In this document: one piece after another, positions 1 to 28,081 of the stretch
Layout: each line of letters starts with the position of its first letter
How positions within the stretch are numbered: position 1 is the first letter of the stretch
Assembly: GCA_963706955.1 (NCBI GenBank)
Contig: CAVPOC010000008.1
Span: 736,001 to 800,000 of the forward strand
Length of the DNA stretch: 64,000 bases
From: an uncultured Verrucomicrobiae bacterium
Lineage (GTDB): Bacteria > Verrucomicrobiota > Verrucomicrobiia > Chthoniobacterales > Terrimicrobiaceae
Direction: 5' to 3'
Notes under the pieces: generated by a model
Told to the model about the DNA's origin: nothing
The model's input: the letters and a program-made list of their open reading frames with translations, nothing else
Databases searched by the model: none
Translations under genes and position numbers: made by a program

Positions 1-3000
1 GACCAATACGTGTTTCTTCGGACCAACACGCAGCAAGGTAAAGCGCAGAAGTGGCGCCTCTGAAGGCTCGAAGCGTTGCGCCAACTCGGCAGCGAGCAAT
101 TCCATCCTGCGCGTTTCTTGCCTCTCGCCATCCAGCGCCGAGAGGTCCTCCTCTTGCCACGGCACCTCGACATCACGAACGATCACCTGCACAGGGCGCT
201 GGAGCCCCTCATTACGAAAAGCCGACCGCAGATTCGCGTGCCGGAGGATTAGCGCGTTGAGAGCACGCTTTAGGCGCGCCACGTCCTGCAAACCCTCAAA
301 CTCCATGCAAATCTGCACGCTGTAGGGATCCACTACGCTCCGATCAAAGAGCGCGTGAAAGAGTAGACCCTCTTGCAGGGGTGACAGGGGGAGGATCTCT
401 TCCAGATCCGGATAGGCCACCTCCAATTGTTCCACTTGTTCGGCTGAGACGACTACCAGCGGGAAGTCTGAGGGAGTGTGTCCGCCTGCACCGGGCTGTT
501 GGATATGGCGAATCAAGGCCTCAAGCGCTCGCCGCCATCCCTCGGCCAGCGATCGAACCTCAGATTCGGCCAACAGCGCACTTGCCCACCTCCAGGTCGC
601 GGAAAGGCAAGGTCCATCCGCAGTGTCCAGCGCCAAAGCATTGATATTGATTAAATGACTCAGAGGCGTCGTCGGATCCGCTCCGCCATCGATGCCGCCT
701 CCCTGAGCTAATGACCACTCTTTGGACTCCTCGATGGTAAAGCGTCCCAGATAGTTGAAGCCGATCTGCGGTTCGCACCGTCCAGCTAGGCGCGTCCTTG
801 ACTCAGGATTCAGATAACGCAGCAGGCCGTAACCCAAGCCTTGGCCGGGCACCGCTCGCAACTGCTCTTTGATCCGCTTGATCGCGCGACCCATAGACGG
901 GCCGCCAGCCATTGCTTCATCGATATCCATTAGGCCAGGGTCCAAACCCACCGGAAACAGGCTGGTGAACCAGCCGACAGTGCGCGAGAGGTCGATGCCA
1001 CCGGCCATGGGTTCGCGCCCATGTCCTTCAACGTCGACAAGTATTGGCCCATCGTTTCCGTGTCCGCGTGCATTCCGCCACTCGGCTATGGCCACTGCGA
1101 GCGCTCCCAAGAGCACGTCGTTAACCTTTGCATGAAAAGCCGCTGCTACTTCGGTCAGAAGCGCGGAGGTTATATTCGCCGGCAGTTCAATCCGCAAGAG
1201 CCCGGCGCTTGAAAGCGTATCGCGAATGGGGTCGAGAACAACGCCCGAAACAAGCGCCTTGTCACCCTCGAGAATGGCTTCCCAAGTCCGAAGCTCCGCC
1301 AGCACCGCCGGAGTCCGAGCCACTTCGGCCAAATGCTGTGTCCATAGCCTAAAGGGTGTGCCCACCGGCTCAATCTGCGGAATCTCGCCGCGGACTAACG
1401 ATCTCCAAGCCGTCGCCAAATCCGAAACCAGAATTCGCCATGAGACCCCATCCACTGCTAGGTGATGGATAATCAAGGACAGCATCCCAGGCTCGGCACC
1501 GCGGAACCAAACGGCTTGGATCATCCGGCCAGCCTGTGGGTCAAGCCGGCTTTCGGCCTCCCGCACTGCCGTCTGAGTGCTCTCCTCTCTCGCTGGCTTC
1601 TCGAGCCCGGCAAGGTTTACCTGGCTAAGACAGGCCTCGGCTTGGACGGCACCTCGTGGGGCGATCTGGAGCTCCCAATCACCCTCGGTATTGCGCTCCA
1701 GTTGCAAGCGTAGCATGTCATGGCCATCAATGATCGTCTGGAGCAGCGTTGCCAGGTTCTGCTCAGTCAGCTCTGCTGGCACTTCTAACAGGACCGACTG
1801 GCAGAAGCGCTCGATGGGCCCTCCCCGCTCCTGCAACCAGCGCATGATCGGCGTCGCAACTATCTTGCCGATTGCGTCTGCCGCGTGGAACTGAGATCCA
1901 TCATTCAACTTCGGGATCCTTGCCGCAGCCGCTAAGGCCTCCACCGTTCGCAGCTCAAAAACCTCGCGGGGCGTGAGCTCAAGTCCCCGACGGCGAACCC
2001 TGCTTACGAGCGCGATCGAAAGGATACTGTCGCCTCCAAGTGCAAAGAAATTGTCATTGATGCCCACCCGCTCCAGCCCGAGCAGCTCGGCATAAATCCC
2101 GCACAAAATCTCCTCTCGCGAGGTCCGAGGCGCGCGGTAGCCTTCGGTCTGCCGTTGCCGGGAAGGAGCCGGCAGCGCTCGGCGATCGATCTTGCCATTG
2201 GGCGTTAAGGGCAGCTTGTCAAGAATGACAAAAGCTGAAGGCACCATGTAGTCGGGCAGCTTCTGCTTTACAAAGGCGCTCAGCTCTTCGGTGATCCTAC
2301 CCGTGTTCTGCCCATCGGCCAAAACCACGTATGATACCAGTTGCTTGTCCTTCTCGGCCCGGCCGCTCTCGCGCACGCACACCACGGCCTGCCGCACCCC
2401 GGGGTGGCCGGCAAGAACAGTCTCGATCTCGCCCGGCTCGATGCGGAAGCCCCGGATCTTCACCTGGTCGTCGCCCCGGCCAAGGAACTCGATGTTGCCA
2501 TCGGAAAGGAACCGGCCCAGGTCGCCCGTGCGGTAAAGCCTTTCGCCGGTGGCAAAGGGCGAGGGAATAAAACGCTCGGCCGTCAGCTCCAGCCGGTTGA
2601 GATACCCCTTGGCCACTCCCGCTCCGCCTATGCAAATCTCGCCAGCCACCCCGACGGGCACCGCATTAAGATGGCGATCCAAAATATACACCTGTGTATT
2701 GGCGATCGGTCGGCCAATGGGAATCCTGCCCTCCCAACTCCGCTGCCCGGACCACACCTCATACCAGGTAGCAAAGGTGGTCGTCTCGGTAGGCCCATAG
2801 ACATGCAGAAGTCGTTGCGGCGGGCCATCACCTTCCATGACCTTTTTCACTGCCCCCGCATCGCACTCCTCTCCTCCGAAGAGCACATTGCGTAGCTTGC
2901 TGAATATGTCCGCCCGCTCATGCACTAGCTCGTTGAAAAGCGCCGTGGTTACAAACAGCGTCGTCACCCCATGCCGGGAAAGCTCCCCGGAAAAGCTCTC

Positions 3001-6000
3001 CGCGGACAATACATCTTCCCGCTGGATGCCCACCAGTCGGCTCCCGTTCAACAGCGCTCCCCAGATCTCAAAGGTGGCCGCATCGAAACAGCAGTTCGCT
3101 ATCTGCGCCACCACGTCCCCGCTCCCAAGCCGCACGTAGTCGCTATTGATGACAAGCCGGTTGACTGCCCGGTGTGGCACCATTACCCCCTTGGGCATCC
3201 CTGTCGATCCAGAGGTGTACATCACATAGGCTACCTCCTCAGGCCCTGCCATATACGCGTCTTGCTTAGCTCTGCTGCCGCCAAGCCTCCTTATCGACTC
3301 CCAATCCCCATCCAGGCACACGCTTCGAACCGGCCTGCCGGAAAACCGCCAGGTCAGCCCTTGGCTGGTCAGCACAACCCCGGCCCCGCTGTCCTCCAGC
3401 ATCAAGGCGATCCTTTCTTCGGGATATCTTGGATCAATGGGCACATAGGCCCCACCCGCCTTCAGTATCCCCAAAAGCCCAACGACCATCTCTATCGATG
3501 GCTCCAGACAGACCGCTACTCGTTCTCCTGGCCCTACCCCCAAGCTGCTCAGAAAGCCGGCAAGCTGCCCGGAGCGGACCTTTAATTCCTCGTAGCTCAG
3601 CTCTTGCTCTCCGAAAACCACCGCCACCGCTTGCGGATGGCGCCTCGCCTGCTCTTCAAACACTTGGTGAATTGCGCGATTTTTCGGATAGTCTCGCCTC
3701 GTCGTATTCCATTCGATAACAATCCGCTCCCGCTCGACCTCCGGCAGCAGCGGCACAAGACTCACCGCCCGCTCAGGCTCTGCCAACATCCCCTCCAGCA
3801 GCGCCACATAGTGGCGCACCATCCCTGCGATGGTCGCCTCCTCGAAAAGATCCCGACTGTAAACCAATGAACCGCTCCAGCCGTCCCCCTGCGCGCCCAA
3901 GTGCAGCTCAAGGTCGAATCGGCTCGCTGCCGATGGCAATAGCTGCCGGGATACCTCCAAGCCAGGCAACTCGAGCGCCTCGCGAGGCGCATTCTGCAGG
4001 GCGAACATCACCTGAAAGAGAGGATGCCGGCTCATGTCCCTTTCCGGGTTGAGCTCCTCAACAAGCTTCTCAAAGGGTAAGTCCTGGTGCTGATAGGCAT
4101 CCAGTGCCGCCCGACGCACGCGACTCACGAGCGCCCGGAACGACGGCTCACTAGCCAGATCCGCCCGCATCACGAGGCTGTTGACAAAGAATCCGATCAA
4201 CCCCTCAAGCTCTACGCTCCCTCGGTTGGCCACCGGCGTCCCCACCATGAAATCCCCCTGCCCGCTATAGCGATGAAGCAAACCCTCAAACGCCGCCAAA
4301 AGGCTCATAAAGGGCGTCACCTCCTCACGACGGTTGAACTCGGCAAGCCGTCCGCGATAATTCCACTCCCAGCGTGAAGTCGCAGCGCCCTCCCGAATAG
4401 CTCGGCCTTGGCGGTCGCGGCCGATCCGCCGGCAATTCCAAGATCGCCGCACCAGCTAGCTGGCCTCTCCAATACTCCAGCAGGCCCTCCAGCACCTCGC
4501 CCTGCATCCAGTTCCGCTGCCAGAGCGCATAGTCGGCATACTGAACCGGAAGAGGCTCGAGCGGATTGTTGCCGGCTTTGCGGAAGGCTTTATACGCAAG
4601 CCACAGATCTCGATGGAACACCGCGATCGACCACCCATCCGAACTGACGTGGTGACAGCTCCAAACAAGAATGTGGTCGAACGCTCCCAACCTGAGAAGT
4701 CGCACGCGCAGCAGCGGACCTTGCCTGAGGTCAAAGGGCTCCTCAGCTTCACGCCGCAGTGCGGACTCGATGGCTTCCTGCCGGTCGCCGTCGCCCAAAG
4801 TGCTCAAGTCTTGCACGCGTAAAGGGATTAGTATTTTCGGCTCGATAACCTGAAAAGGTTCGCCCTCATGTTCGTCGAAGCGTGTGCGCAGAATCTCATG
4901 GCACCCGATCAAAGCGCTCATAGCATGCTCGAGGGCACTAACGTCCAGCTCACCTCGAAGCCGCAGCGCCGCTCGGCATGTTGTATTCGCAGCCAGAGTT
5001 CTCGAGCTGGTTAAGAAACCAAAGACGCTGCTGGGCGAATGACAGGGGCAGCCGTTCGGGGCGTTCTTGGCGCACCAGCGGCGGGCCCGCCTTTCGTGCC
5101 TCAGCCAAACGAGTGACCAATTGAGCCACTGTCGGCGCTTCAAAGATTGCCCGCACTGGAAACTCCAGTGCCAAAGCCCTTCGCACCCGGCTGACAACCT
5201 GCATGGCAAGCAACGAGTGTCCTCCAAGTGCAAAGAAATTGTCATTGATGCCCACCCGCTCCAGCCCGAGCAGCTCGGCATAAATCCCGCACAAAATCTC
5301 TTCTTGCGGGGTCCGAGGCGCGCGGTAGCCTTCGGCCTGCCGTTGCCGGGAAGGAGCCGGCAGCGCTCGGCGATCGATCTTGCCATTGGGCGTTAAGGGC
5401 AGCTTGTCAAGGATGACAAAAGCTGAAGGCACCATGTAGTCGGGCAGCTTCTCTTTTACAAAGGCGCTCAGCTCCTCGGTGATCCTGCCCGTGTTCTGCC
5501 CATCGGCCAAAACCACGTATGATACCAGTTGCTTGTCCTTCTCGGCCCGGCCGCTTTCGCGCACGCACACCAAGGCCTGCCGCACCCCGGGGTGGCCGGC
5601 AAGAAGAGCCTCGATCTCGCCAGGCTCGATGCGGAAGCCCCGGATCTTGACTTGTTGGTCGACCCGCCCAAGAAACTCGATGTTGCCATCGGGCAGAAAA
5701 CGCCCCGGTCTCCCGTGCGATAAAGCCTCCCGCCGTGCACAAAGGGCGAAGCAATAAAACGCTCGGCCGTCAGTTCCGTCGTGCAGATATCCGTGGGCCA
5801 CACCCTCGCCCCCAATCCAAATCTCGCCTGCCACCCCAATGGGAACCGCTTCCAGGTGCTCGTCCAAAATGTAAACCTGGGTGTTGCCAATAGGCCGCCC
5901 AACCGGAACCCTCCAGGGGTAGTTCTCCGGGGGGCCCTTAATCTCAAACCAGGTGGCAAAGGTGGTCGTCTCGGTCGGCCCATACATGTGTAAGAGTCGT

Positions 6001-8355
6001 TGCGGAGGAGCGCTACTGCAGCACGCGCCGCACCGCCCCCACATCGCACTCCTCCCCGCCAAAGAGCACCGTGCGTATCGACCCGAAAATCCCTGCCCGC
6101 TCATGCACCACCTCGTTGAAGAGCGCCGTGGTCACAAAGAGCGTCGTCACTCCCTGGCTCTCCAGCTGCGCGGCAAACCTCTGCGTCGACAAGATATCCT
6201 CCCGCCCAAAACCCACTAAGCGACACCCATTGAGCAACGCTCCCCATATCTCAAACACCGCCGCATCAAAACAGCAGTGGGAAATTTGCGCCACCACGTC
6301 CTCCGACCCGAGCTCCACATAGTCGCTCTTGACCACCAGATTGATCACCGCCCGGTGCGGCACGCACACCCCCTTCGGCTTGCCCGTCGAGCCGGAAGTA
6401 AAGATCACATAGGCCTCGTCCTCTCCGCTGAGCCCTTCTACCGGCGGCTTTCGCTCACTCCCGGCCATCGGAAAGCTCTGCCAGATCTCCTCTAACTTCA
6501 GTGTCCGGATCTCCGCGCTCACATCAACGGAACCTCCTGTTAGCAGCACCGCTGCTTCCGCCTCCCCGAGCATCAGCTTCACCCTCTCCTCCGGATACTC
6601 AGGATCGATCGGCACATAGGCCGCTCCCGCCTTCAAGATCCCCAGTAGTCCCACCACCATCGCCACCGAGCCCTCCAGACAAAGGCCTACCCTGCATCCT
6701 CGTGTCACTCCTACCTCGCGCAAACATTCCGCCACCGACTCCGAGCGCAAATCCAACTCCTCGTAGCTGAGCTCCCGCCCTCCAAAACTTACCGCCACTA
6801 CTTGGCCCCGCAGCCGCGCCTGCTCGCGGAAAACATCATGAATGCAGCCTTCACGCCGATACTCCCTTTGCGTCGTATTCCAATCCTCTAAAATCCGGTC
6901 CCGCTCAGCTTCAGCTAGCATTGGGAGACGGGATATCGGGCGCAGCGGATCTTCGGTGATCGCTTCGAGCAGGATCCTGTAACTCTCCAGCAAGCGTACC
7001 GGCGTCGAATGCTCGAAGAGATCGGTACTGTACTCGACGGTGGTTACTAACCCGCCTCCGGTCTCCACGATGACGAGACTCAAATCAAACTTTGAGGTTC
7101 CGTTGTCGATTCGCAACAATTCGACCTCGACGTCTGGGGCATGCACTGTGAGCGACGGCAGATTTTGAAAGCTAAAGCTGACATCAAAGAACGGATTGCG
7201 GTTTAGTTGCCGCTCCGGCCTAAGTTCCTCGACCAGTTTTTCGAAGGGAACCTCCTGCGAGTCATAGGCATTCAGCGTCACTTCGCGAATTTTGGCCAGA
7301 AGGTGCACAAACGAGGGGTCCCCCGAGAGATCGGTGCGCAGCGCCATTGTATTGGCGAAAAAACCGATCAGGCTCTCGAACTCACTGCGTTCGCGGTTGG
7401 CGATAGGCGATCCGACAATCACGTCAGTTTCACCGGAATAACGCGACAAGAGCACTTTGAATGCCCCCAATAAGACCATGAACAGCGTGGCCCCTTCCCG
7501 GCGAGCCAGCTGCTGCAAAGACTCCGTTAGTTCCGCCGGGAAACGGGAGAATACGCGTGCCCCCTGGAAAGTGGGATCGCCAGGACGCGGCTTATCCAGC
7601 GGGATTAGTTGCGCGCTGGCAACTCCCTCCAAACGCTCCCTCCAAATCTGAACCTGCCGTTGCAGCTTCGCGCCCGCAAGTTCCTGCCGTTGCCACACGG
7701 CGTAATCGGCATATTGAACGGGAAGCGGGGGCGAGGGAGAGGTGTCGCCGCGCGAGAAGCGTTCATAGCCGGAAAACAATTCACGAACGAGCACACCGAT
7801 GGACCACCCGTCGCAAATGATATGGTGCAGGACCATTACAAAGATGTGCTCGTGCTCGGAACAACGAAGAAGCTTGGCGCGCCACAACGGTCCGTGGACC
7901 AAATTGAGCGGGCGCCGTGCCTCATGGACGGCCTCTTCCCGCGCAGCTTCCATGCGCGCCGATGGCGGAATATTGTCGAAGCTTATCGTCGACAACTTCG
8001 TCGGTCGAAATGAAGTCTCATACTGCGCCGGATCACCATCGTGCATTTCGAACTTGGCACGGAGCAGATCATGACGCAGCAGGATCTGATTTAAGCTCCA
8101 TTCCAAGGCTTCCCTGTTTAGGGAGCCAACAAATCGAACCGCAATCGGCGAGTTGTAAGCCACGTTTTCCGGATAGAGTTGATCCAGAAACCAAACGCCC
8201 CGCTGCGTATAGGAAAGAGGCGCGGGAACATGTCGATCTCGCACAGGAACTCGCCCCCGCTCGAGAGCAGGACGTCCGGATGCTGAAAGGCGAGCAGCAA
8301 GCAACGCCCTTTTCTCGGGCGGAAGTGAAGCGATTCGAGCAGCGATTTCACTCAT
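1..8355 (-). CDS. Multimodular NRPS, C-A-T-C-A-T-E-C(partial), runs off the left edge; frameshifted near 6015, 5790/5705, 4965 and 4350
   Basis: ORFs 6013..8355, 4950..6104 and 4325..5386 give C (HHIICDGWS), A (FTSGSTGKPKG, YGPTE), T (LGGHSL) and C (HHVSSDGWS). Segments translated by hand below ~4350 give A (YTSGSTGMPKG), T (FFALGGDSI), E (HHLAVDGVSW, EGHGRE, RTVGWFT, FNYLGR), the linker TPSDFPL and a C start (LSPLQEGLLFH). No internal fragment is listed in the ORF track, consistent with an open frame to the edge. Confidence 0.93.
2033..2462. repeat. Copy 1 of a ~430 bp near-identical direct repeat (A-subdomain plus N-terminal half of T); partner at ~5221-5650
   Basis: Alignment by eye shows long identical runs, starting cctccaagtgcaaagaaattgtcattgatgcccacccgctccagcccgagcagctcggcataaatccc in both copies. 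Confidence 0.95.
5221..5650. repeat. Copy 2 of the ~430 bp NRPS A-sub/T repeat
   Basis: Matches 2033-2462 with scattered substitutions only. Confidence 0.95.
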
Positions 8356-8362
8356 GCGAGGA

Positions 8363-8658
8363 TCAAAAGCGAGCAGACGCGAGCGACTTTGGGCAAGCGG
8401 CGACCCTGATCAGATCGGCCAACTCCGCAAGATATTTTAGAAAGTCCAAGATCTCCGCCTTGCGTGCGGCCAACTCATCGCGAAGCTCAGCGTCAAAACG
8501 CCTGGCGGAGCGCTGACGCGAGCGTCCCCCCTCATCCGAGACTCGCAGATCAAGTTTCCGCAGGCGGCAAGAAATCTCCATACCGGCTGCGAGGCCTCTC
8601 TTTGCGCCTTTTCCATTATCCGTTCGGAGTCATGATTTGAAGAACCGGAGGTGATCAC
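8363..8658 (-). other. Small stand-alone TubC_N-like (beta-hairpin docking domain) ORF fused to a copy of the PKS C-terminal tail; internal frameshifts
   Basis: Stitched frames give MEKAQREASQPVWRFLAA..RKLDLRVSDEGG..RVSAPPGV..AELRDELAARKAEILDFLKYLAELADLIRVAACPKSLASARF. This resembles the N-terminus of the 24046 NRPS (LRYRAPKGSL..LAARKQEIIQLL). A GTG start overlaps the upstream TGA. Confidence 0.65.
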
Positions 8659-8851
8659 AAGACCAGCTCTTCGTGATCGATGGCCCGAGGAGCAAAAGGC
8701 GTCTTGGCGCCAGTGCACCGAGCGCTGTCGATATATTCAGCAAGTGCGGCTACGGTGGCATTCTCAAAGAAGACGCGCAGCGGAATATCCAGGCCGAAAC
8801 ACTTCGCAGGCGGGAAATAACTCGCATGGCCAATAAGGAGTGTCCGCCAAG
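8581..8851. repeat. ~270 bp repeat (T-domain C-half, HEELVL tail and start of the next ORF); partner at ~12030-12301
   Basis: Shared sequence includes gcctctctttgcgccttttccattatccgttcggag and atatattcagcaagtgc..ggtggcattctcaaagaagacgcgcagcggaatatcca. Confidence 0.93.
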
Positions 8852-11980: not shown

Positions 11981-12029
11981 GGCGAGGAGACCACGCGCGG
12001 ACTATCCGACACGCTACGCGATTGATCCA

Positions 12030-16300: not shown

Positions 16301-16307
16301 TCGAGGA

Positions 16308-19300
16308 TCAAAGGCGAGCCGGCACCGCTGGCTTGGGACGGCCGGCGGCCCTAAGTAGATCGGCCAGGCCCGCGAGGTGCTTCAAACCATCCATGGTCGT
16401 GTCGTAATCGATACCGAAATCGATCAGACAGGCAATTTCATCAACGCCGATCGCGGCAAACTTCTCAACCGTGCTCAGGCAGGATTCGGCAGTTCCAAAA
16501 AGCGAACCGTGTTCGTAGAAGCGATCAAAGGCGAGCGATAAAAGAGTCTCTTCTTCGGAAGACGAAAGTGGTCGACCTGTCGACGACAGAAAATCGAGAT
16601 GGGACTTGAGATACTCTCGAAATGGTCCACTCACAATTCGTCGCACTTCATCGGCGTTCGAACCGACAAACGCATGCAGCATTAGAGTGACCTTTCCAGC
16701 GGCTGGATCGTGGCCATGCTCGGACCGCGCCTGCCGGTAAGCGGCAATTTTTTCCGCCATTTCCTCCGCGTTGATTCGAAGGACCGCGGTCAACACATTG
16801 GCTCCGATGCGGCCAGCCTGGATGAACGTCTCGGTTGACCGCGTCGCAGTCAACCATACCGGCAGTTCCGGCTGGATCGGCCTTGGAAAAAGCACTCGCT
16901 CGGCCTGCTCACCGGTCCCGGTTTTTCCTCGGACCGGCTCCCCACGCCAGTAGCGCCGCACCGCCTCGACAACTTCGATCGTTAAGTTCGATCGTTCGCT
17001 GAACTTCTCGGGAGAGAGCATGAAATCAACGGGATGAAAGCCTGTAGCGAAAGCGATAGCAACCCGACCACGAGAAAGGTTGTCAACCAACGCCCATTCC
17101 TCAGCGATCCGAACCGGACTCTGCAGCGGCGCAATCACGCTGCCGGCGCGTATCCTAATTGTTTTCGTGATGGCCGCAAGGGCTGCCCCTAACACTGCAG
17201 GATTCGGGTAAAGCCCACCGAAACGATGAAAGTGGCGCTCAGGCGTCCAGACCGCAGAGAAGCCTCGATTGTCTGCGAACCGTGTCGCGTCAATCACGAG
17301 CTGATATTTGTCATTGGGAAACGCTGACTCATCACCGGAAAAGAAGAAGAGACTCAACTCTACCGAGGACGGCTCGGCACTGGATTCTGTCGGTGCCAGG
17401 GGGTCATTTGCGCGATTCGGCTCGCGATTCGGCTCCTTTGCGAGCAGCGCCGCGGCTTCATCAACCCGAAGAGCCTCGATCTCGGAGAGCAAATCTTCGA
17501 GACCAGGCACTTCGCTGGCTTGGGCTTGAGCAAGCGCGATCGACTCCGCCATGGCCAGGACGGTGGGAGTTCTCAAAAACTCGCCGACGGGGACGTCTAT
17601 CTCGAACCGATCTCTCACACGTGAAATTAGTTGGACGGCCATGAGCGAATTCCCGCCCAACTCGAGAAAGCTCTCACGGATGTCAAAGTCTCCAGTGCCC
17701 AACACTTGCTGCCATAGATCGGCCACTTGCCTTTCAAGCGGGTTACGGGGAGCAAGGATTTGTCGAACGTGACTTCCTCGCGGTTCCGCCGGCAATTTCT
17801 CTCCGTCGGAAGGCGCACTGGTCCAATCCTTCAAAACGAGCTTTTTCGACGTGCCGGTCGTTTCCTCCTTTTTGCGTTCGATCCAATAGCGCTGCCGCTC
17901 GAAGGGATATCCGGGCAACGCCACCCGCGCAGGCGGCTCCCCTCTATAAACATTTGCCCAGTTGACCGGCTGCCCCGCCAGCCAAAGCCTGCCCAAAGTC
18001 CAGAGTGCAAAGCCGTCTTCCGAAATCGTCTGGTTCGAACTTTGGCACGAGGAGAGAACGACGTGCTTCTTCGAAACCGCCGGATGGGACCTTGCCAGCT
18101 TCGAGAGGAGTTGGCCTGGCCCGACCTCAAGGAAGATTCTTCCTTCCGTCCGGGCCAATGCCTCGAGGGCAGGCGAGAAACGAATCGTTTCGCGCGCTTC
18201 GCGGGCCCAATAGACCGGATCCGTGAGGTCCTCTGCGGTTGCGCGTGTCCCCGAAAGAGTTGAGAAGAAGTTGGTCTCAGGCGCCCGGAAACTTATACTG
18301 GCCGCCACTCGCCGGTAGGGCTCGACGATCGGTTCCATCATCCGCGAATGGTAGCCATGCGGGACAACAATCGTTTTGTAAGCGACGCGTTGCTTGTCGA
18401 GTCTTCGCTTGAAATCCTCCATGGCCTCGTGGGGACCAGCAACGGTTGTGTGATTTGGACCGTTGATGGCGCCGATGTCCAGCGCTTCTCCCAGTAGAGG
18501 CGTGACGCCTTCTTCGCTGAGGGCCACCGCCAGCATCGCCCCGGGAGGCAATTGCTGCATCATGCGGGACCGCTCCCCCGTGATGCGGACCGCGTCTGGC
18601 AAGGAGATCACCCCGGCGACCGTGCCGGCAACAATCTCTCCAATGCTATAACCGAGGACGGATTCTGGCTCAACTCCCCAGCTTTTCCACAGCATCGCCA
18701 GAGCGTAGGAAGTCATGAAGAGAGCGGACTGGATATAAAACGCGCGTTGAAGGCAGACGCGGGCATTTTCTTGCCCCTGGGCGGTCGGGAAGATGATTTC
18801 ACGAAGATCGACATCGAAGCCCGCCTTAAACAATTCGCTGCACTCGTCGATGCTCCGACGCACGACAGGTTCGGTCTCATAGAGTCCGCGCGTCATATTC
18901 ACCTCGTGTGAACCGTGCCCGGGAAATAGGAATGTCACCGGGGGAGGCGGCCCTTCGAGGAGGCCGCTCGCGACACGCGACGAGTCATCGGATTCAATCG
19001 CCGCAACGGCCTCGGCAGTCGACCGACAAAGAACTATGCGACGCCAGGCAAATTCCGCACGCCCGGCCTGCAGAGTGAAAGCGACGCTCGCAAGATCGAT
19101 ACCGGGATTCTCTTGCAGGAATCGCGACAGATTTTGCGTCGAAGTCGCCAACGCGCTCTCCGACTTCGCGGAGATCACCAGGAGGTGCCAAGTGCGCAAA
19201 AGGTCTTCCTTTCTTGTCGATGGAGCCTCTTCGACGATCACGTGTGCGTTTGTTCCGCCGAACCCGAGCGAAGTAACCCCAGCGCGGCGAGGCCGGCTGC

Positions 19301-20541
19301 CCCGTCTCCATCGCCTCAATTCGGCATTGACAAAGAACGGACCGTCGCCAAGGCCGCACGCGGGATTTGGCTCCAGAAAGTTGACGGTGGGGGGAAGTGC
19401 TTCATGCTCCAGCGCGAGGACCGTTTTGATAAGTCCGGCTACTCCCGAGGCCGCGTCCGCGTGCCCGATGTTGCCTTTGACCGAGCCAATCGCGCACCGT
19501 TCATCGAGATCTCGCCCGGCCCCTAGAGCCAATCTGATCGCCTCGATTTCAACCGGGTCGCCTTTTTGCGTGCCCGTTCCGTGCGCCTCGATGTAGTCGA
19601 TCTCATTTGCCTCCAGACCCGCCACGGCTAGCGCCTTGCTGATGGCGGCTGCCTGCCTCGGAGCGCTGGGGGCCGTGAACCCTGATTTTGATGCGCCGTC
19701 GTTATTTACTGCCGAACCTCTGATAACTGCACGGATCGGATCGCCGTCGGCCAGAGCATTCCGTAGCGGCTTGAGAACGACCACTCCGATGCCCGAACCA
19801 AAAACCGTCCCTCGACGCGCGCGCATCGAAAGGACGCGTGTGTCCGTCCGGAGAATAGATTCCGCTTTCCTTATGAATGTAACCGGCCTTCTGCGGAACT
19901 CGGACGGAAACACCGCCCGCCACGGCCATGTCGCATTCCCGGTTTAGAAGACTCTGACACGCCACGTGCACGGCCACCAGTGACGTAGAACATGCCGTCT
20001 GGACGGTGATGGCTGGTCCCCGCAGATCTAATTTGAAGGCGACACGCGTCGCCAGGTAGTCGTTATCGCTGCCGATCACGATTTGATAGTCGTCCAGAGC
20101 CTCCTGGAGCATTTCGTCCCGGCTAACGTTTCGCACGAAGTAGGAGTTCCTGGCCGCCCCCGCGAAAACGCCTATTTCACCCTGAAACCTATACGGGTCG
20201 CATCCCGCATTCTCCAAGGCATGCCAGGCGCATTCCAAAAAGAGTCGGTGCTGCGGGTCGGTAATCTGAGCGTCGCGGGCGGACATATCGAAGAACGAGG
20301 CATCAAAGAGATCAACGCCCTCGAGCACTGCCGCGGCTCTCACATAGCGTGCGTCGAGACCTCGTCGGGAAGCCACGCCCGCGGCGTCAAGCTCTGCATC
20401 GGATAGAACCGAAATCGCTTCGAGCCCATCGCGTAGGTTCCTCCAAAAATCTTCAAGGCATCCTGCCCCGGGGAAGCGACCTGACATTCCCAGGATCGCA
20501 ATACCCGAACTCTCCGATGCTAAGCTCCCAATCACCGCCAT
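16308..20541 (-). CDS. Type I PKS KS-AT-ACP fused to a luciferase-like (MupA/Atu3671-type) monooxygenase; frameshift near 19812
   Basis: KS has TACSTSL, EAHGTGT and NIGHAD. AT has GYSIGE and HGYHS. ACP has LGGNSL. The LLM domain has SLFFFS and WTPERHFHRFGGLYPNP. No KR or DH motifs. Confidence 0.93.
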
Positions 20542-20620
20542 GGCCGCGACAAAACGTGCACTTCCACGCAGAATGTTTCTTCGTCAGGATCGGGCATAGA
20601 TGGTGTGAAATGAAAGATTC

Positions 20621-23600
20621 TCAAAGTAAGGCTTCTTCTCGAAAAACGTCCTTGGGCGGCTCGGAACGATTGCTCTCCTCCTCTCGAGACCTCGCAATAA
20701 AGCGACCCATCTCGGCAAGAGTCGGATGGTCGAAGACGGCGCGCAGAGGGATCTCGACTCCAAAACGACTCCGCAATTGGGAAACAACTCTGGTGGCCAA
20801 AAGGGAGTGCCCGCCCAGTTCAAAAAAACTTTCATGCGGCGCGATCGCCTCCACCTCGAGCACCTCCGACCACACCGAGGCGGTCATCTCTTCGAACGGA
20901 CTCAGCGCTGCTGAATCGTGTTGGATCTGCCTTTCGGGCTTAGGGAGTGCCAGACGATCTATCTTACCGCTCGGCGTCGTGGGCAGCTCCTCCACTCGGA
21001 CTATCCGTGAAGGAATCATGTAGAAGGGCAGCTTCTCCTCCAGGTAAGTCCTCCAACTGCTAAGGATGTTATCATCCCGGGTAACCACGTAGCCGACCAG
21101 CTGCCGCTGGCCAGTTTTCTCCTCTCGAGCGACAACAACCGCATTTTCCACTTCCGGGTGAGCCTTCAAGACAGCCTCGATCTCGCCCGGTTCAATCCGA
21201 AAACCGCGAATCTTGGTCTGTGAGTCCGCTCGCCCGATGAACTCGATGTTGCCATCAGGAAGGTATTTAACAATGTCTCCGGTGCGATAAAGCCGCTCGG
21301 CCTGGTCCCCACCAAAACGCTCGGAAACGAAGCGCTCACGCGTCAGTTCAGGCTGGTTGAGATAGCCCTCGGCCACGCCAGCTCCCCCAAGATAAAGCTC
21401 GCCTGGAACTCCCGCGGGCAAAGGATTTCCATACTTGTCGAGAACGTAGGCCGTCGTGTTGGAGATCGGCCGTCCGATCGGAACGGTCGTCGCATTCTCT
21501 TCTACATGGGTCACCGGATAGAACGTGGCAAACGTCGTGCACTCGGTCGGACCGTAAACGTGCAGCAACCGACGCGGAGGACCGCCACTTTCCAAAACTT
21601 GGCGAACCGACCTGGGGTTAACGGCCTCACCGCCAAAGAGCACCTGCTTGACGCCCTGGAAAATTCCGGCGTTTTCAGCGACCATTTCGTTGAACAAGGC
21701 GGTCGTCAAAAACACTGTGGTCACTTTCCCACGCTTGAGCTCAGCGCCTAAACGATGGGGGTCGAGGGCCACGCTTTTCGGAATCAGCACGATACACCCA
21801 CCCGTGAGCAAGGCGCCCCAAATCTCGAACGTTGCGGCATCAAAGCAAACATGAGAAAGATGTGCGATGCGATCTTGCGGGCCCAACTCCACGTAATTGG
21901 TGTTGAGCACAAGGCGCATGATGGCGCGATGCGACACGACGACCCCCTTCGGCGTCCCCGTCGATCCCGAGGTGAAAATCACGTAAGCGGGATCCCGCGA
22001 TGTCACTTCAGGTCGGGCGTTCTCTGTGGACGAGGTTCTTGCCTTGTCGCCCCCAATCAGCGACCATTCCCCGTCTAAATAGATCACCTTCGCGTTGAAC
22101 GCGGGAAGAGAGGTCGCCGCCTCCGGGATGGTCAGAATGACCGGTGTGGCAACGTCATTCAGAATGAAGGCCTGACGCTCGGCCGGATAAGCCGGATCCA
22201 GTGGGACGTAAGCGCCACCGGCTTTCAGGATTCCCAGCATCCCAATAATCATCTCGATGGATCGATCCATGCACAATGCGACACGTGATCCTGCAACGAT
22301 CCCCTGACTCCGGAGATAATCCGCGAGTCTATCGGAGCGTTCGTTCAATTCCCGGTAATTCAGGGATGCGCCTTCGCCCGCGACTGCAAGCGCTTCCGGC
22401 CGAAGGCGGGCGAGCCATTCGAATTCCTCATGGACGCATCGATCGGCGGGGTACGGCGCGGCGGTCCGATTCCAATTAACGACGATTTGCTCAGTTTCGT
22501 CTTTCGTGAGCAAGGACAACTGGCCGATGCGGATGTCGGGATGGTTCACTATCCCCTCGAGCAGTATCTCGAAATGTCGGGCCATGCGCTCGATGGTCGT
22601 CGCTTGAAAAAGATCCGTGCTGTATTCAAGCAAACCGGACAGCTGCTCCTCTTGATTTCGAAATTCCAGGAGAAGGTCAAAGCGCGTCATGCCAAAGTCG
22701 ATGGGCAACCGCTGAACCTCTAGACCGTCGAGCTTTAAGCCCTGGTCGTCCCCACGCTGGTGGAGGACGAAAGACACCTGAAACAGCGGATTCCGCAAGT
22801 GGAGACGTTCGGGACGCAATTGCTCGACCAGCACCTCGAACGGCATGTCCTGGTGGTCCCATGCTTCGATCACATTCCCATGCACGAGGCGCAGGAGTTG
22901 GCGAAAGGTTGGATTGTCGTTGCATTGTGTTCGCAGCACCAGTGTGTTGGCAAAGCAGCCGACGACAGTCTGAGTCTCGGCCATGCAGCGGTCGGACACG
23001 GCCGTCCCCACAGTGATGTCGTTCTGCCCGGAGTATCGGTGCAACAAAGTCTTAAATGCTGCCAGAAGGGTCGTGAACAGCGTGACACCCTCCCGCCGGC
23101 TCAACAGCTTGAGAGCTTGCGACAGGTCGGACGGAAGATTGAAGCGATGCGTCGCACCTCGACCGGAAGGCGAACCGCTCACGGGTCGATCCGTGGGCAG
23201 ATTCAGCTCCGCGGCACCGGCAAGCTTTCCTTTCCAATAGCCCAGCAACTCCTCGAGCATCTGGCCATTAAGACGTTCCCGCTGCCACTTCGCGTAATCG
23301 CAATACCGGCTCGTAAGCGTTTCGAGGGAGGGACGTCGACCGTTGGAATTCGCATCATAAAGAGCCGAAAGATCCCGCAGCATGACGTTGACCGACCACC
23401 CATCGACCACAAAGTGATGCGTGGTGAGCAGAAGCGCGTAGCGATCCTCCGCAAGCTGGAAGAGCGTCGCGTGCAAAAGAGGCGAGCGATCCAATGCAAA
23501 GGGTCGCCTTGCTTCGAGGGCGATCAAGCTTTGCAACTCGCGCTCTCGCTTGGGCTCTGGAATAGTCCGCAGATCGACGATTTCCAGAGGCATGCTGGTC

Positions 23601-24046
23601 CCCTCGGCGGGCACAATGATTTGGATGGGCTGAACATCGTTGACTGCGCACGTGGTCCGAAACGCTTCGTGACGTTTGATCAGTTCGCCTAGACCGCGTT
23701 CCAGTGCCGGAACGTCTAATGGGCCATTGAGGGAAAAACCCAACGCAACGTTCAGAGCGCAACTGCCCGGCTCGAGTTGTTGGAGGAACCACATCCGCTG
23801 CTGCGCAAACGAAAGCGGATAAACTTCCGGCGAGTCCGATGGCGGCGGCCTCCAGGCTTGAAACCATGGTCTGGCAACCGAGCGGTTCTGAAGGAGTTGA
23901 ATAATCTCTTGCTTGCGAGCGGCCAGGGCTTCGATTATCCCCACCGAAAGCGATCCTTTCGGAGCGCGATATCGCAACTCGTCTCCCTCCCGCCAAAGTT
24001 GAACGCCCTCCTCTTGGAGAGAGCGAAGAAGCTCCGATGCGTTCAT
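20621..24046 (-). CDS. NRPS TubC_N docking-C-A(Ile-like, DAFFLGVTFK)-T
   Basis: N-terminus MNASELLRSLQEEGVQLWREGDELRYRAPKG; HHFVVDGWS; FTSGSTGTPKG; LGGHSL. ATGA overlap with the upstream stop. Confidence 0.95.
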   Translation of the reverse strand: MNASELLRSLQEEGVQLWREGDELRYRAPKGSLSVGIIEALAARKQEIIQLLQNRSVARPWFQAWRPPPSDSPEVYPLSFAQQRMWFLQQLEPGSCALNVALGFSLNGPLDVPALERGLGELIKRHEAFRTTCAVNDVQPIQIIVPAEGTSMPLEIVDLRTIPEPKRERELQSLIALEARRPFALDRSPLLHATLFQLAEDRYALLLTTHHFVVDGWSVNVMLRDLSALYDANSNGRRPSLETLTSRYCDYAKWQRERLNGQMLEELLGYWKGKLAGAAELNLPTDRPVSGSPSGRGATHRFNLPSDLSQALKLLSRREGVTLFTTLLAAFKTLLHRYSGQNDITVGTAVSDRCMAETQTVVGCFANTLVLRTQCNDNPTFRQLLRLVHGNVIEAWDHQDMPFEVLVEQLRPERLHLRNPLFQVSFVLHQRGDDQGLKLDGLEVQRLPIDFGMTRFDLLLEFRNQEEQLSGLLEYSTDLFQATTIERMARHFEILLEGIVNHPDIRIGQLSLLTKDETEQIVVNWNRTAAPYPADRCVHEEFEWLARLRPEALAVAGEGASLNYRELNERSDRLADYLRSQGIVAGSRVALCMDRSIEMIIGMLGILKAGGAYVPLDPAYPAERQAFILNDVATPVILTIPEAATSLPAFNAKVIYLDGEWSLIGGDKARTSSTENARPEVTSRDPAYVIFTSGSTGTPKGVVVSHRAIMRLVLNTNYVELGPQDRIAHLSHVCFDAATFEIWGALLTGGCIVLIPKSVALDPHRLGAELKRGKVTTVFLTTALFNEMVAENAGIFQGVKQVLFGGEAVNPRSVRQVLESGGPPRRLLHVYGPTECTTFATFYPVTHVEENATTVPIGRPISNTTAYVLDKYGNPLPAGVPGELYLGGAGVAEGYLNQPELTRERFVSERFGGDQAERLYRTGDIVKYLPDGNIEFIGRADSQTKIRGFRIEPGEIEAVLKAHPEVENAVVVAREEKTGQRQLVGYVVTRDDNILSSWRTYLEEKLPFYMIPSRIVRVEELPTTPSGKIDRLALPKPERQIQHDSAALSPFEEMTASVWSEVLEVEAIAPHESFFELGGHSLLATRVVSQLRSRFGVEIPLRAVFDHPTLAEMGRFIARSREEESNRSEPPKDVFREEALL

Positions 24047-27000
24047 ATTTTTCCCTCCATCCATTCGCCGGTTGGGTCTTTCCCATGCGCTTCCGTGATG
24101 AGCCCTCCAGCGAGCGAGTGAAGAGGGACGTGATCGGATCCGAGAGCCAGAGGCCCGCGCAACCGCGCAGGATCGAGCCCCCCTATCTGGCAGAGGCCAA
24201 TTCCGTAGGATGACGCGGCCATCTCGAGCAACTGCGTCATCAGACCGGCCTCGATCGTGGCAAAAGAAAGGGATAAATCCCCGTAGAGCGGCTCGATGGC
24301 ATCAAGCTGGGCGACAAGAAAAATTGAGAAAGCGGCCGAATCGAACACGGGTCGATTGATCAAAAAATCATAGATCTCCGGATCGATACAGGCCCCTCCG
24401 GAGATCAGGACAAGTCTGCGACCAGCGGGATCGAAGTAGTAGGCCCCGGCGGGCAGTGATTCGACCCGCCGGGGCTTTGCATAAAAGTAGGTTTGCACGG
24501 GATATGAGCTGCCCGCCGAACCGAAGAGATATTTCGGCTGGCCGTCAACCGTCATCGAGCCGAGCCTTCCGAGGAGCCCCCTCAGCTTTGCGAAGGGAAC
24601 GGGAGCCTGCAGGAATTCTCTGTAGCTGCGACGTTTGCGATACAGCGAGATCGCGTCTTCATCCTGCATCGCGCCGAGTGCGTATGCAGGAACATTTTCG
24701 TCAAAACGGCGAAGGCCTGATCGCTCGCGCTTAAAGGACTCCCGCTCGACAGGATCGGTAAGAACCGTGGACCTGCTTCTCCTTTGCTCGTGCGCATGGG
24801 GCCCCCGCAAGGGCGCAGCGCCCTCATTTTCGCGGGTCTTGCTTTGATAACCGCGAAGCAAGCCAATGATCGTCGGGCTGCGATAGAAGTCACCGATCCT
24901 GGGGCGATAACCAAGCGTTTCGTCAAGACGATTGACAATTCGAATCATGTCAATGGAAGTCGCCCCGTATTCGAGAAGACTGACTTCGGGATCGATGTCT
25001 TTAAGGCGGAGAACGCTTACCACCAGCTCGCGGATCTGCTCGAGGCTGGCCAGATGCGGGGATGGCGAATGCCCGGCAGAAGCAGCGGCCTCCGGCGGCT
25101 CGGGAAGTGCCTGGCGATCGACCTTCCCATTGGCCGTTAATGGAAGGGCATCGAGAAAGAGATAGGTTGCCGGCACCATGTAATTGGGCAATTTCTGCGC
25201 AAGGAATGCCTGCAAATCTGCGGATGCGGGGCCAGCCGCTTGATCGCCCACGGCGTAACCGACAAGCCGCTTGGGGCCGTCCCGGGGACCGTTGGCCACC
25301 ACGGCAGCGGCCGAAATTCCTGGGTGCTCTGCCATCGCCGCTTCGATCTCCCCTAACTCGACGCGGTATCCCTGTATCTTGACCTGAAAGTCCTCCCTGC
25401 CTAGGAACTCGATGTTGCCGTCAGGCAAATAGCGGCCGAGATCTCCCGTCTTGTACAACCGACTTCCGGTTCGGGGGTGATAGACGAAGTTGGCCCGGCT
25501 CTTTTCCTCGTCCCGCCAATAGCCTTTGGCCAATCCAATTCCCCCGATGTAGAGCTGCCCAGCGACCCAGAACGGACGGGGATTCAGAGCGTCGTCGAGC
25601 ACATGGAAACTCTGGTTCATCATCGGTCTCCCGTAAGGGATGCTCTTCCAGCTGGGATCCGCCGTCTCGATCGGATAGAGAACCGACCAAATAGACGCCT
25701 CCGTGGCGCCCCCGAGACTGATCACCTGGACATCTTTGCCTAGAGCCTTAATCCGATCCGGCAAGCTTACCGGGACCCAGTCCCCGCTCAGAAGCACCAG
25801 ACGAAGAGAATGCAGCGAGAATTCGGGTCGACCGGACAGATACTCGACCAGTAACTCCATCAGGGCCGGCACGGAGTTCCATACGGTCACCTTTTCCTGA
25901 GCGACGATTTGCGCCCAATGTGCCGGGTCTCGCATCCCAGAGACATCAGGAATAATGATCGTTCCCCCGGCGGCCAGTGTGCCAAAGATGTCGTAGACCG
26001 ACAGATCGAAGCTTAAGGCAGAGAGAGCCAGCACCCGGTCTGCGGCGGCCACGCCGAAACGCCGATTGATGTCGAGGATTGTATTAACCGCTCCGCGATG
26101 GTCGATCATCACGCCCTTTGGCTCGCCTGTGGAGCCCGACGTGTATATCACATAAGCCAGATCTTCGGCTCGCTGCACTTGATCCAAAGGTGTTTTTTCC
26201 AGGCCTTCCAAGGACACATCACTGACAGACAACCGCTGGATATCCCGTGGCCATTCTACGATCTTATCGATGGGAGGTTGAGTTAAGACCAATTCAATTT
26301 GGCCGTTGTCCAGCAGATGCCACAGGCGCTCCTTAGGAAGATTCGGGTCGATAGGAAGATAGGCAGCGCCGGAGCAAAGAACCCCAAGAACGGCCACCAC
26401 CTGCTCCCAGCCTTTTTCCATCACCACTGCCACGAGGCGGTTGGGGCTGCTACCACGGCGGCGCAGCCAGTGAGCCACCTGCAGTGACCGCTGGGACAGT
26501 TCGGTGTACGTAAGACGACCAGATGGCGAGATGATGGCTGGATGGTCGGCCCTCCGGGATACCTGCTCCGAAAACAATGTATGCAACAATCCGGTCGAGG
26601 GCTGCGCCTGTGTAGCGTTGGCAGAAGCTTGCAGTTTGAGGTGGGCAGGGGGAATTAGCTTTAGCACTGTATCCGACCGGCTCTCTTGCCAACTCCTCGC
26701 GTCATCCGCCAAGCGACGCAGAAAATGTAAGTAAGATCCAAACATCTCCTCTACCATGCCGCTTGGAAACAGCTCCTCCACGACGTCCCAATCGAGCACG
26801 AGCGATCCCCTTTGTTCGTTGATCTGATGGTCAATGAACACTTGCGGAGTTTGGGTAATGGTGTAGACGACCTCGCCGAGCCAATCCATCGGGCTAGAAT
26901 CCCGGAATTGGAGATCGGCCGAGAGAAGGCTCGTGAAGACGACCGGCATGATCGCCCGAAAGCCACTGTCTTGACGCTTGGCAAGCTGCCGAATGACTTG

Positions 27001-28081
27001 AACCCCGCTCATGGAGCTATGTTTCAGATCCTCGTCGAGCTGCTGCTGAACATGGAGGGCCCGAGTCTCAAAGGTGGGCTGGCTCTCGTTATCGATCCCA
27101 AGGAGGGAAGAAGAAGTGAAGTCGCCCACTACGCCCTTTAACCGAGGGTCACGGGCCATTCGATTAAACAATGTTACGTTGATGGTTATCCGAGGGGACT
27201 TACTCCACACCTTGAGGACTTCAGAGAAAGCAGCCAGCAAGAGCAGTGTAGGCCTGAGTCTTCGGCTGGACGCCTGGTCCTTCAGTTGGGACCATATTTC
27301 CGCATCAAGTCGGGCATGGAAGCGCTTAAACCGGGAGCGAGGAAGGTCGCTAGGATTTTTTGCAAGTGGCAGCTCCGGCGCGGGCGGCAAAGAGGTCAGT
27401 CGGTTGTGCCAATAGTCCTCGGCTCGTCGGTATACATCGCTATCCCGCAGGGAAGTCTCTGCCATGACATAGTCTCGAAATGAAAGCTCTAGCGCAGGTA
27501 AATGAGTGGCGGAATCTTGGTAAAATTGCGACCACTCGGCAAAGAGCAGATTCCTGCTTCTTGCATCCACCACGAGCGCATCGAAACTCAAATGCAGTCG
27601 GAATCGCTGGTCATCCAGAAGGCTAGCGCGAACCTCGAACAACGGCCACTGATCGCTGGGCAGCACTTGGTGCGACATACTCTCGCGAACCGCATTCAGA
27701 CCGGACTGGACCGTGTCGGGATCAGCCCTCCTCAGGTCGAAGGTTTTGATTTTATAATGAGGAACCGTCTTTAAAATGCGCTGGCGCCCATCGGACGACA
27801 CGATCGCCCGCAGCATATCGTGACGATCAATCAATTGCTGCCAGGCAAGGTTGAGGCGCTCCAGATCCAGGCCTTCACAGTCAATTTCGAAGTAGCGGTG
27901 AGTCGTTACACCCCCCAGCTCAACGCCTTCCAGCCGACCGGCCCAGGTACGCCTGCTGGATATCGGTTAGAGGAAAAGGTAGATGCCGCTCCTCTGCCAC
28001 GGCAACAATCGTAGGCAGCTGGCGCAGAAAACCCTGACTCTGTGAACTACTATCTTCCGGCTTCGCGACCGCGGGGATCAT
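24043..28081 (-). CDS. NRPS Cy-A(Cys)-T-Ox, thiazole-forming module; frameshift near 27925, start approximate
   Basis: Upstream frame gives PFPLTDIQQAY. Cy has DALVVDARS and PVVFTS. A has FDLSVYD, WNSVP, LLSGDW and SLGGATEASIWS (code DLYNLSLIWK). The C-terminal nitroreductase-like oxidase has RRSYREF and SAGSSYPVQTY. Confidence 0.93.

Follow-up and report, generated by a model that had tools for sequence, protein, structure and literature searches.

The window analysed here, 64,000 nucleotides of an uncultured Verrucomicrobiae bacterium (contig CAVPOC010000008.1, positions 736001-800000, written G000:C8:736001-800000 below, C8 alone being a condensation domain), carries in its first 28,081 nucleotides a hybrid assembly line of nonribosomal peptide synthetase (NRPS) and polyketide synthase (PKS) modules. 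From its sequence we consider it highly likely that the line is an orphan biosynthetic gene cluster for a hydrophobic ten-unit thiazole peptide-polyketide of a soil and rhizosphere Terrimicrobium-like Verrucomicrobium. The source genome, G000, is a metagenome-assembled genome (MAG) of 4.16 Mb in 15 contigs, 92.5% complete. Each part of the line is of a known kind, and the combination has no characterised match in the searches made. To our knowledge, almost no natural products are known from Verrucomicrobia, though the phylum is abundant in soil.

Pfam domains were searched in the minus-strand open reading frame (ORF) pieces of window positions 1-28081, where every long ORF lies on the minus strand. 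All ten scanned pieces, spanning positions 1-27834, carry NRPS or PKS domains with E-values from 1e-10 to 1e-112, and the matches are therefore not due to chance. In the 5' to 3' direction, the domains run Cy-A-T-Ox, dock-C-A-T, KS-AT-T-LLM, C-A(FkbM MT)-T, C-A-T and C-A-T-C-A-T-E-C..., in which Cy stands for heterocyclisation, A for adenylation, T for carrier, Ox for oxidase, dock for docking, C for condensation, KS for ketosynthase, AT for acyltransferase, LLM for luciferase-like monooxygenase, MT for methyltransferase, and E for epimerisation. A preliminary description of this DNA had given the same order, which the Pfam scan reproduces over positions 1-28081, and had suggested following the cluster leftwards; it is indeed truncated by the left window edge and extends about 10.8 kb further, to G000:C8:725240. 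The 20 kb left of the window (L001), scanned likewise, hold three further C-A-T modules along with a terminal C domain and the gene of a phosphopantetheinyl transferase (PPTase). The full line thus comprises nine NRPS modules and one PKS module in seven collinear genes plus the Sfp/HetI-type PPTase, with nine A domains, ten carrier domains, one KS-AT, and 13 condensation-family stretches. Thirteen of the 15 condensation-domain matches of the genome fall on G000:C8:725264-763876. Docking domains of the PF18563 (TubC_N) family stand at two subunit starts, and the start ATG of gene 1 lies exactly at window position 28081. In window coordinates, the cluster reads as follows:

24043-28081, minus strand: gene 1, Cy-A1-T1-Ox, from Pfam, motifs, and specificity code (Cy ~26695-27979; A1 25123-26574, Cys code DLYNLSLIWK; T1 24859-25041; nitroreductase-type Ox 24157-24639).
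20621-24064, minus strand: gene 2, TubC_N dock-C2-A2-T2, from Pfam and code (TubC_N 23888-24034; C2 22481-23827; A2 20963-22423, DAFFLGVTFK; T2 20696-20878).
16308-20541, minus strand: gene 3, the PKS module KS-AT-T3-LLM, from Pfam, TIGR04020, and motifs (KS 19377-20505; AT 18099-18935; T3 17544-17729; MupA/Atu3671-family LLM 16365-17357).
12104-16300, minus strand: gene 4, C4-A4(MT)-T4, from Pfam, alignment, code, and 120 homologues (C4 14837-16168; A4 12431-14776, DLTKIGHVGK; FkbM MT 12698-13270; T4 12179-12367).
8655-11980, minus strand: gene 5, C5-A5-T5, from Pfam (C5 10517-11851; A5 9002-10456, DAFLLGVTFK; T5 ~8700-8911, split by a frameshift).
8421-8621, minus strand: TubC_N-type docking-domain relic in the spacer between genes 5 and 6, from sequence comparison.
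1-8355, minus strand, running off the window to G000:C8:733226: gene 6, C6-A6-T6-C7-A7-T7-E-C8-A8-T8, from Pfam and codes (C6 6892-8223; A6 5379-6831, DAFFLGMTFK; T6 5106-5297; C7 3721-5040; A7 2191-3660, DAFFLGVTFK; T7 1924-2109, GGDSI; E ~553-1875; start of C8 1-465; the remainder of C8, A8, and T8 outside the window).

The last NRPS gene, outside the window, reads dock-C-A9-T-C-A10-T with a terminal C domain (HHMAYDV), and is followed by the HetI/Sfp-type PPTase. Pfam detects no thioesterase or reductase domain in any cluster ORF, the terminal C domain standing instead, and no loading domain before Cy in gene 1.

The substrate of an A domain is read from ten specificity positions relative to GrsA. 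We read the codes from an alignment of all nine A domains combined with pairwise mapping onto conserved motifs, a mapping that reproduces canonical Cys and Asp-like codes. The six codes within the window were re-derived independently and are identical to those given in the preliminary description; past the window edge, A8 reads DAFFLGVTFK, A9 DAFLFGLTVK, and A10 DAFFLGATFK. In the literature, DAFFLGVTFK is paired with Ile (Val as a minor substrate), as that description had held, and gives D-allo-Ile where an E domain follows; DLYNLSLIWK is paired with Ox-modified Cys, and DLTKVGHVGK, one residue off the A4 code, serves Asp and Asn, the former in most cases. Module 1 unites the features of a thiazole-forming module, namely a Cy domain with the DxxxxD motif (DALVVDARS), a Cys-specific A domain, and an Ox domain of the flavin mononucleotide (FMN) oxidase type (PF00881, E = 1.6e-11), so that the thiazole proposed earlier from Cy and Ox fits both the domain order and the code. 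In module 7, an E domain with HHLAVDGVSW comes after T7, whose motif is GGDSI, and the C domain downstream of E opens LPLSPLQEGLLFH. C2, C7, C9, C10, and the terminal C domain open LPLSFAQQRLW, a pattern that the openings of C4-C6 did not match. GGDSI, HHxxxDG, and the motif of the C domain after E we take to be the marks of an E-type domain and a D-donor (DCL) C domain. The motif of C8 fits a D-configured donor, and the D-residue read earlier from T(GGDSI)-E is consistent with all three elements. The catalytic motifs checked are all kept, namely HHxxxD in C, DxxxxD in Cy, Cys-His-His in KS, and the active Ser of AT and of the carriers.

The oxygenase of the PKS module matches TIGR04020 (MupA/Atu3671, FMN-dependent) at 454.1 bits against a cut-off of 244.45, over model positions 1-340 of 341, and its best relative in the PDB is PuwE (6ket, E = 9.3e-101). 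The 3-amino-2-hydroxy acyl unit of puwainaphycin is proposed to arise from the unreduced PKS module of PuwE together with the oxygenase and the aminotransferase of this protein. In PuwE, as in gene 3, an FMN luciferase-like monooxygenase follows the carrier of an unreduced KS-AT-T. PuwE has an aminotransferase, however, and a lipid primed by a FAAL (fatty acyl-AMP ligase) yields a beta-amino-alpha-hydroxy fatty acid, whereas the KS of the present cluster would extend an Ile-peptidyl chain with no aminotransferase, from which an alpha-hydroxy-beta-keto-gamma-amino acid is expected. The mxg line of myxoglucamide likewise joins an amino acid to malonate and oxidises the alpha carbon to an alpha-hydroxy/alpha-keto amide through an FMN monooxygenase, mutation of which abolishes this group (PMC13638107). 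It differs in having its oxygenase on another protein, where it is joined to a C domain, in having a ketoreductase (KR) and a dehydratase (DH) in the PKS, and in making a short glycolipopeptide that a thioesterase releases (PMC13638107). The comparison with our cluster is one of architecture. LLM domains are also annotated in microginin and ralsolamycin genes. The family assignment and the likeness to PuwE and MxgE lead us to expect alpha-hydroxylation of the carrier-bound ketide. Since no KR, DH, or aminotransferase is found in the PKS module, we infer a 4-amino-2-hydroxy-3-oxo acid derived from Ile, possibly oxidised further.

The KS keeps its TACSTS, HGTGT, and NIGH motifs. The AT retains Ser, Arg, and the last His, and reads GYSIGE and HGYHS where GHSxG and HAFH are canonical. 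Among the best 120 matches, 65 have a scorable AT; the Verrucomicrobial clade shows GYS(I/V)GE, HGYH, and HGSH, and more distant members show GHSLGE, HAFH, and QGAQ. HGSH stands where GQGxQ is canonical. The odd motifs are kept in relatives at 65-99% identity, loci L002, L003, and L005 among them, and may reflect a different extender unit or a tuned mechanism. With KS-AT-T-LLM as query, 5542 proteins match at E ≤ 0.001 among 8000 scored, a form of about 1400-1440 aa being common; the few named matches among those listed belong to Verrucomicrobia, Acidobacteria, and Chloroflexi MAGs and to Streptomyces, Corallococcus, and Nostoc.

The second unusual element is a methyltransferase of the FkbM family (PF05050, 53.3 bits against a gathering threshold of 22.7) that is inserted between motifs A8 and A9 of the A4 domain, after GRxDxQVKxRG and before LPxYMVP, and that carries the S-adenosylmethionine motif VFDVGANIG. 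A protein search with the MT region found 2327 relatives at E ≤ 0.001, most of the named ones being from uncultured soil bacteria, and the code of the host A domain was computed in the best 120 of them. The host codes are distributed as follows:

DLTK[IVM]GH[VI]GK or DMTK: 83 of the 120 best matches.
DSTK/DATK variants: 4 of 120.
Glu-type DAKD/DGKD...VDK: 8 of 120.
Related ...D[IL]G[LV]VDK or V-K: 6 of 120.
Other or truncated: 3 of 120.
Host partial, no code: 16 of 120.

Asp-type codes thus account for 87 and Glu-type codes for eight of these 120 homologues (~95 together), and the codes recovered include none of what we take to be the Ser (DVWH...) and Thr (DFWN...) types. This pairing with acidic-residue codes points to O-methylation of a side-chain carboxylate, so that the most likely role of the domain is to convert the Asp side chain into its methyl ester. 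The methylated Asp/Asn of the preliminary description is borne out by an Asp-type code with an MT and can probably be narrowed to the carboxylate of Asp. In the PDB, the MT region has no sequence match, all 50 matches falling on the C-terminus of the A domain. Published interrupted A domains that hold a methyltransferase (M) domain share the A8-A9 insertion site, and the M-domain types described in a 2020 review perform N-, S-, and O-methylation on Ser/Thr, Tyr, Cys, and aromatic hydroxyls, whereas the present family pairs with Asp/Glu (PMC8341866). A word search of the main text of that review for 'Asp' returned no Asp-directed methylation (PMC8341866). The hosts of type II interrupted A domains (KtzH/ColG) are Ser/Thr-specific, and the A4 code is Asp-type; KtzH is set apart here by its description.

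Based on the above, we propose the following route. An unspecified acyl or aminoacyl donor X would be condensed with Cys, and Cy and Ox would turn the Cys into a 2-substituted thiazole. Module 2 would add Ile, and KS-AT-T would then add a malonate-type C2 unit that is left unreduced. The MupA/PuwE-type FMN monooxygenase would hydroxylate the alpha carbon of this ketide to give the 4-amino-2-hydroxy-3-oxo acid, possibly oxidised further, before module 4 adds Asp and its embedded FkbM domain O-methylates the side-chain carboxylate. Six aliphatic residues of the Ile/Leu/Val types would come next, the third of which, at module 7, would be epimerised to D-allo-Ile; the last two, at A9 and A10, have codes to which we assign no particular residue. 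Lastly, the terminal C domain would release the chain, either through aminolysis by a free amine or through cyclisation. The earlier scaffold, X-thiazole-Ile-ketide-MeAsx followed by three aliphatic residues with the third in D-configuration, is collinear with the domains and codes, and falls short in length, as the line runs to ten modules and a terminal C domain. A bolder and rather doubtful combination of these elements would be the first peptide-polyketide family known from Terrimicrobiaceae. Its members would bear a 2-substituted thiazole joined to a 'warhead' made from Ile, in the form of an alpha-hydroxy-beta-keto (or vicinal dicarbonyl) gamma-amino acid. Beside this would stand an Asp methyl ester made by an M-domain class outside the six published types, and the family could vary in length through three docking points. 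On this reading, the ester might serve as a cryptic activating group, to be used in closing a ring onto the neighbouring hydroxyl or amide.

The donor of X has several candidates, namely an acyl-CoA, an acyl-ACP, or a stand-alone A-T didomain elsewhere in the genome. The latter, of 622 aa (G000:C10:271751-274768; L012:7752-10769), apparently lacks the usual Asp235. It follows a pentapeptide-repeat protein, a KamA-family radical-SAM 2,3-aminomutase lies directly downstream of it, and as a lead it might deliver a beta-amino acid in trans as the starter. No orthologue of it was found in the four relatives with NRPS loaders of their own. In two of the relatives, G002 and G003, a divergent gene for an A-T-C-A-T protein of 1677 aa lies between a small gene weakly matching the CudC-like model and an ABC-2 permease. 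A tblastn search of G000 with this protein returned just paralogous modules (41-47%) and the C10 A-T (29-32%). In G001, whose Cy is more distant (45%), a 2791-aa open frame includes an A-domain match upstream of Cy and thus appears to have A-T fused before it. The orthologue in G032 (88%) begins with Cy directly after housekeeping genes, and the Cy-first line therefore recurs.

At the other end of the line, the terminal C domain is 59-64% identical to a free-standing dock-C beside a PPTase in L002. Rhabdopeptide/xenortide synthetases reportedly have a stand-alone terminal C domain that releases the chain, Val/Ile-rich peptides, and docking-mediated subunit order. Our cluster differs from these systems in that its C domain is fused after T10 and that a decarboxylase to supply an amine was not seen. 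Thiazole-forming Cy-A-T-Ox modules and TubC docking domains are likewise reported from tubulysin, epothilone, and bleomycin-type lines. The cluster shares with them the DxxxxD of Cy, the code DLYNLSLIWK, the nitroreductase-type Ox, and PF18563 docks; the rest of its architecture is not known to be collinear with these lines, and Cy is the first domain of its first gene, with no loader.

The junctions between subunits carry a trace of rearrangement. Genes 4, 5, and 6 (3' ends at ~12104, 8655, and G000:C8:733226) begin with the same leader, MS(D/E)(I/L)A.RI..SL.PEKRALLAARL, and end in ...DHE(E/D)LVL. The segment at 8421-8621 duplicates the junction at which gene 6 gives way to the last NRPS gene, being 63.6% identical to the docking domain of the latter and coinciding with repeat D6 at 92%. 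We also considered this segment as the frameshifted N-terminus of gene 6, a reading that we reject in view of the start leader that gene 6 shares with genes 4 and 5; moreover, the indels listed for run X1 (see below) leave it unopened. The sequence thus reads as a recombination scar, a relic and not a frame break. The shared tails and the dock copy look like signs of recent recombination between module junctions, possibly with relaxed subunit order. One may speculate that, given three such similar C-terminal tails, the last subunit might have three possible docking sites.

The genes are interrupted by frame breaks, in the window at ~27861-27961 (Cy), 19781-19841 (KS), and 8801-8881 (T5), in gene 6 at 5981-6041 (A6) and at 4941-5001 and 4326-4371 (both C7), and once more in the terminal C domain outside the window. 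A concealed compensating pair near 5705/5778 in A6 is visible as a nonsense stretch in the A-domain alignment, which brings the count to at least nine in about 39 kb of coding sequence. We compared window positions 1-20000 with Logan contigs of four runs from three studies (X1, X2, X5, and X8). Among the indels listed, single-base differences from the window occur at 4975 in all four runs, at 5778 in three of the four, at 8792/8793 in three of the four, at 5692 or 5705 in one run each, and at 4355 and 6017 in X1 alone; in X1, X2, and X5, an inserted base restores the T5 frame. Restoring indels are thereby found at six of the seven break positions within this range (FS3, the concealed pair, FS6, FS7, and FS8). 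When the nine indels of X1 are applied, five fragments (1083, 798, 393, 355, and 1485 aa) fuse into two ORFs, namely a complete module 5 of 1115 aa and an open frame of at least 2802 aa. The KS break is read through in a single frame by proteins at 98%, 87%, and 83% identity (P0001/P0002/P0004), and the KS-AT-T-LLM gene is intact in relatives, with 1435 aa in L002 and 1430 aa in L003. Because contigs from other runs carry single-base indels at the break sites, we read the frameshifts as very probably consensus or assembly errors, the contigs showing intact alleles in related populations and not the reads of this assembly.

Polysaccharide genes of the flank are split in the same way, at window positions 30745-32012, 35231-36966, and 37324-38113. 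A Wzt-like ATPase spans frames 1, 2, 3, and 2, a pyruvyl-transferase paralogue frames 2, 3, and 1, and a conserved gene of no named function frames 1 and 2; rpoB is open across 1274 aa. These genes are broken at a density similar to or higher than that of the cluster, a sign that the fault lies with the assembly and not with the NRPS locus.

The relatives provide a further view of the line. A scan of one genome per species with the KS-AT-T-LLM query found ten loci, four of them at 65-75% identity, all in MAGs named Terrimicrobiaceae bacterium, Terrimicrobium sp., or uncultured Verrucomicrobiae, and the remaining six at 27-36%, matching the KS alone. Within the family, 21 of 102 genomes match at E ≤ 1e-100; besides G000, just five reach 67-75%, four of them with the LLM part and all five in the genus of G000, the other family matches being generic PKS at 36-48%. 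Orthologues of the Cy module (76-88%) occur in three other genus members, and the MT module in one of 18 genomes. By their architecture, the clusters of the relatives are variants, not copies. L005, in G003, has Cy-A-T-Ox, two C-A-T modules, and then PKS-LLM; L003, in G002, has PKS-LLM first; L002 starts with the free-standing dock-C and PPTase, has a glycosyltransferase-C fusion downstream, and adjoins the same polysaccharide genes as here. This fusion joins a family-1 glycosyltransferase domain to the N-terminus of an NRPS condensation domain (L002:21547-23442), and hints at glycosylated products in that species.

When all of this is weighed, a cluster intact in nature and assembled with indel errors is, as an overall explanation, one that we hold with considerable confidence. 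Several points speak against it. The contigs compared are mostly 90-99% alike to the window and come from related strains; those of X5 and X8 span 4355, and that of X5 spans 6017, yet the restoring indel is not listed there; and the KS site (~19800) has no restoring indel among those listed. G000 has no loading module before Cy, so that initiation may be incomplete; the non-canonical AT motifs make the extender unit uncertain; and methyl acceptor, hydroxylation site, and release chemistry have been assigned from homology. A decaying pseudogene array, in which the frameshifts would be real and no product made, could draw on the number of breaks in the coding DNA, on the absence from G000 of the loader gene of G002 and G003, on the broken docking-domain relic between genes 5 and 6, and on the restoring indels at 4355 and 6017 being listed for one of four runs. 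It is nevertheless quite improbable in our judgement, given that independent contigs show restoring indels whose fusion gives long ORFs, that no in-frame stops occur between the breaks and the catalytic motifs checked are intact, that a protein at 98% identity passes through the KS break, that the adjoining polysaccharide genes are similarly or more densely broken, and that the orthologous line of G032 likewise starts with Cy and has no loader upstream.

With the cluster taken as intact, the acceptor of the FkbM domain is the next point at issue, since FkbM enzymes are hydroxyl O-methyltransferases and the MT module comes straight after the LLM module; the domain might then O-methylate the hydroxyl (or enol) made by the LLM on the module 3 ketide instead of Asp. 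Eight of the 120 best LLM matches are C-A(FkbM)-T-LLM modules of a separate subfamily, which also counts against Asp as the acceptor; in the six of these with A10 found, the A5-A10 spacing of 491-506 aa marks the A domain as interrupted, its code being Gly-type (...Q[LMV]GM[IV]WK), and Gly has no side chain to methylate. Against this, the 120 closest relatives of our MT lie overwhelmingly in A domains with Asp/Glu codes and none has an LLM domain in the same protein; the orthologous MT module of G034 (75% identity) lies about 14 kb from its PKS-LLM, and L002, L003, and L005 carry PKS-LLM without any MT. We regard hydroxyl methylation as unlikely, and Asp remains our preferred acceptor. It is even harder to credit that the line is a known pathway that went unrecognised, for example a transferred myxobacterial or cyanobacterial thiazole lipopeptide line. 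None of its building blocks is new in itself (Cy-A-T-Ox, TubC docking, PuwE-type oxygenase, interrupted A domain), but the closest proteins among 5.8 billion searched are all MAG proteins with no or generic names, identity above 65% is confined to Verrucomicrobial MAGs, and no matching architecture appears in the literature searched. The protein and literature searches found no characterised counterpart, MIBiG and KnownClusterBlast being outside their scope. They agree with the statement of the preliminary description that no characterised cluster matches, a statement that stays unproven to the extent that it concerns MIBiG.

The Gly-type C-A(FkbM MT)-T-LLM modules (P0024, P0064, P0076, P0077, P0080, P0086, P0094, and P0107) come from uncultured soil bacteria and one Corallococcus, and their architecture suggests alpha-hydroxylation and O-methylation of glycine.

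DNA of the cluster is widespread. Window positions 4000-9000 are partly found in 20 of 21 listed public runs from nine studies (soil, rhizosphere, and unspecified metagenomes), and five runs contain half or more of the sampled words of this segment; no RNA run is among those listed. A metagenome scan with the Cy domain gave 31 pattern matches and no confirmed relative. With the cluster or near-identical DNA in 20 of the 21 listed runs, the product may be ecologically common. The line also combines two little-studied enzymologies, namely a carrier-fused LLM that would oxidise the alpha carbon of a beta-keto unit derived from an amino acid, and an A-domain-embedded methyltransferase associated with Asp/Glu. 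The cluster need not be dismissed as dead, and it is noteworthy for its phylum, its spread in soil, and these two tailoring steps.

Upstream of gene 1 lies one further candidate member of the cluster:

28911-29369, plus strand, divergent from the cluster: small conserved gene, candidate cluster regulator, from a weak CudC-like model match.

Its product scores 46 bits against a cut-off of 218 with the CudC-like regulator model and is 78-81% identical to the product of a gene beside the cluster start in two relatives, and it is a possible regulator of the cluster.

Both flanks consist of polysaccharide genes, with an ABC-2 permease, the Wzt-like ATPase, an epimerase, pyruvyl transferases, and glycosyltransferases on one side, and a family-2 glycosyltransferase (GT2), an amidotransferase, and a family-4 glycosyltransferase (GT4) on the other. 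The GT2, AsnB-like, and GT4 genes were considered as tailoring genes, a role that is unsupported, the same polysaccharide genes bordering the differently built L002 cluster. The top model of the AsnB-like protein is an exopolysaccharide-associated amidotransferase (492 bits, under the cut-off of 817), and with the general asparagine synthase model the protein scores above the cut-off (478 bits, cut-off 267). Further along the window, plus-strand ORFs of 200-685 aa at 43570-46010 and 50587-59754 have an excess of T over A, with an AT skew down to -0.26. These T-rich ORFs, at 44-60 kb, have no Pfam match at E 0.05 and probably encode integral membrane proteins that belong to the polysaccharide locus.

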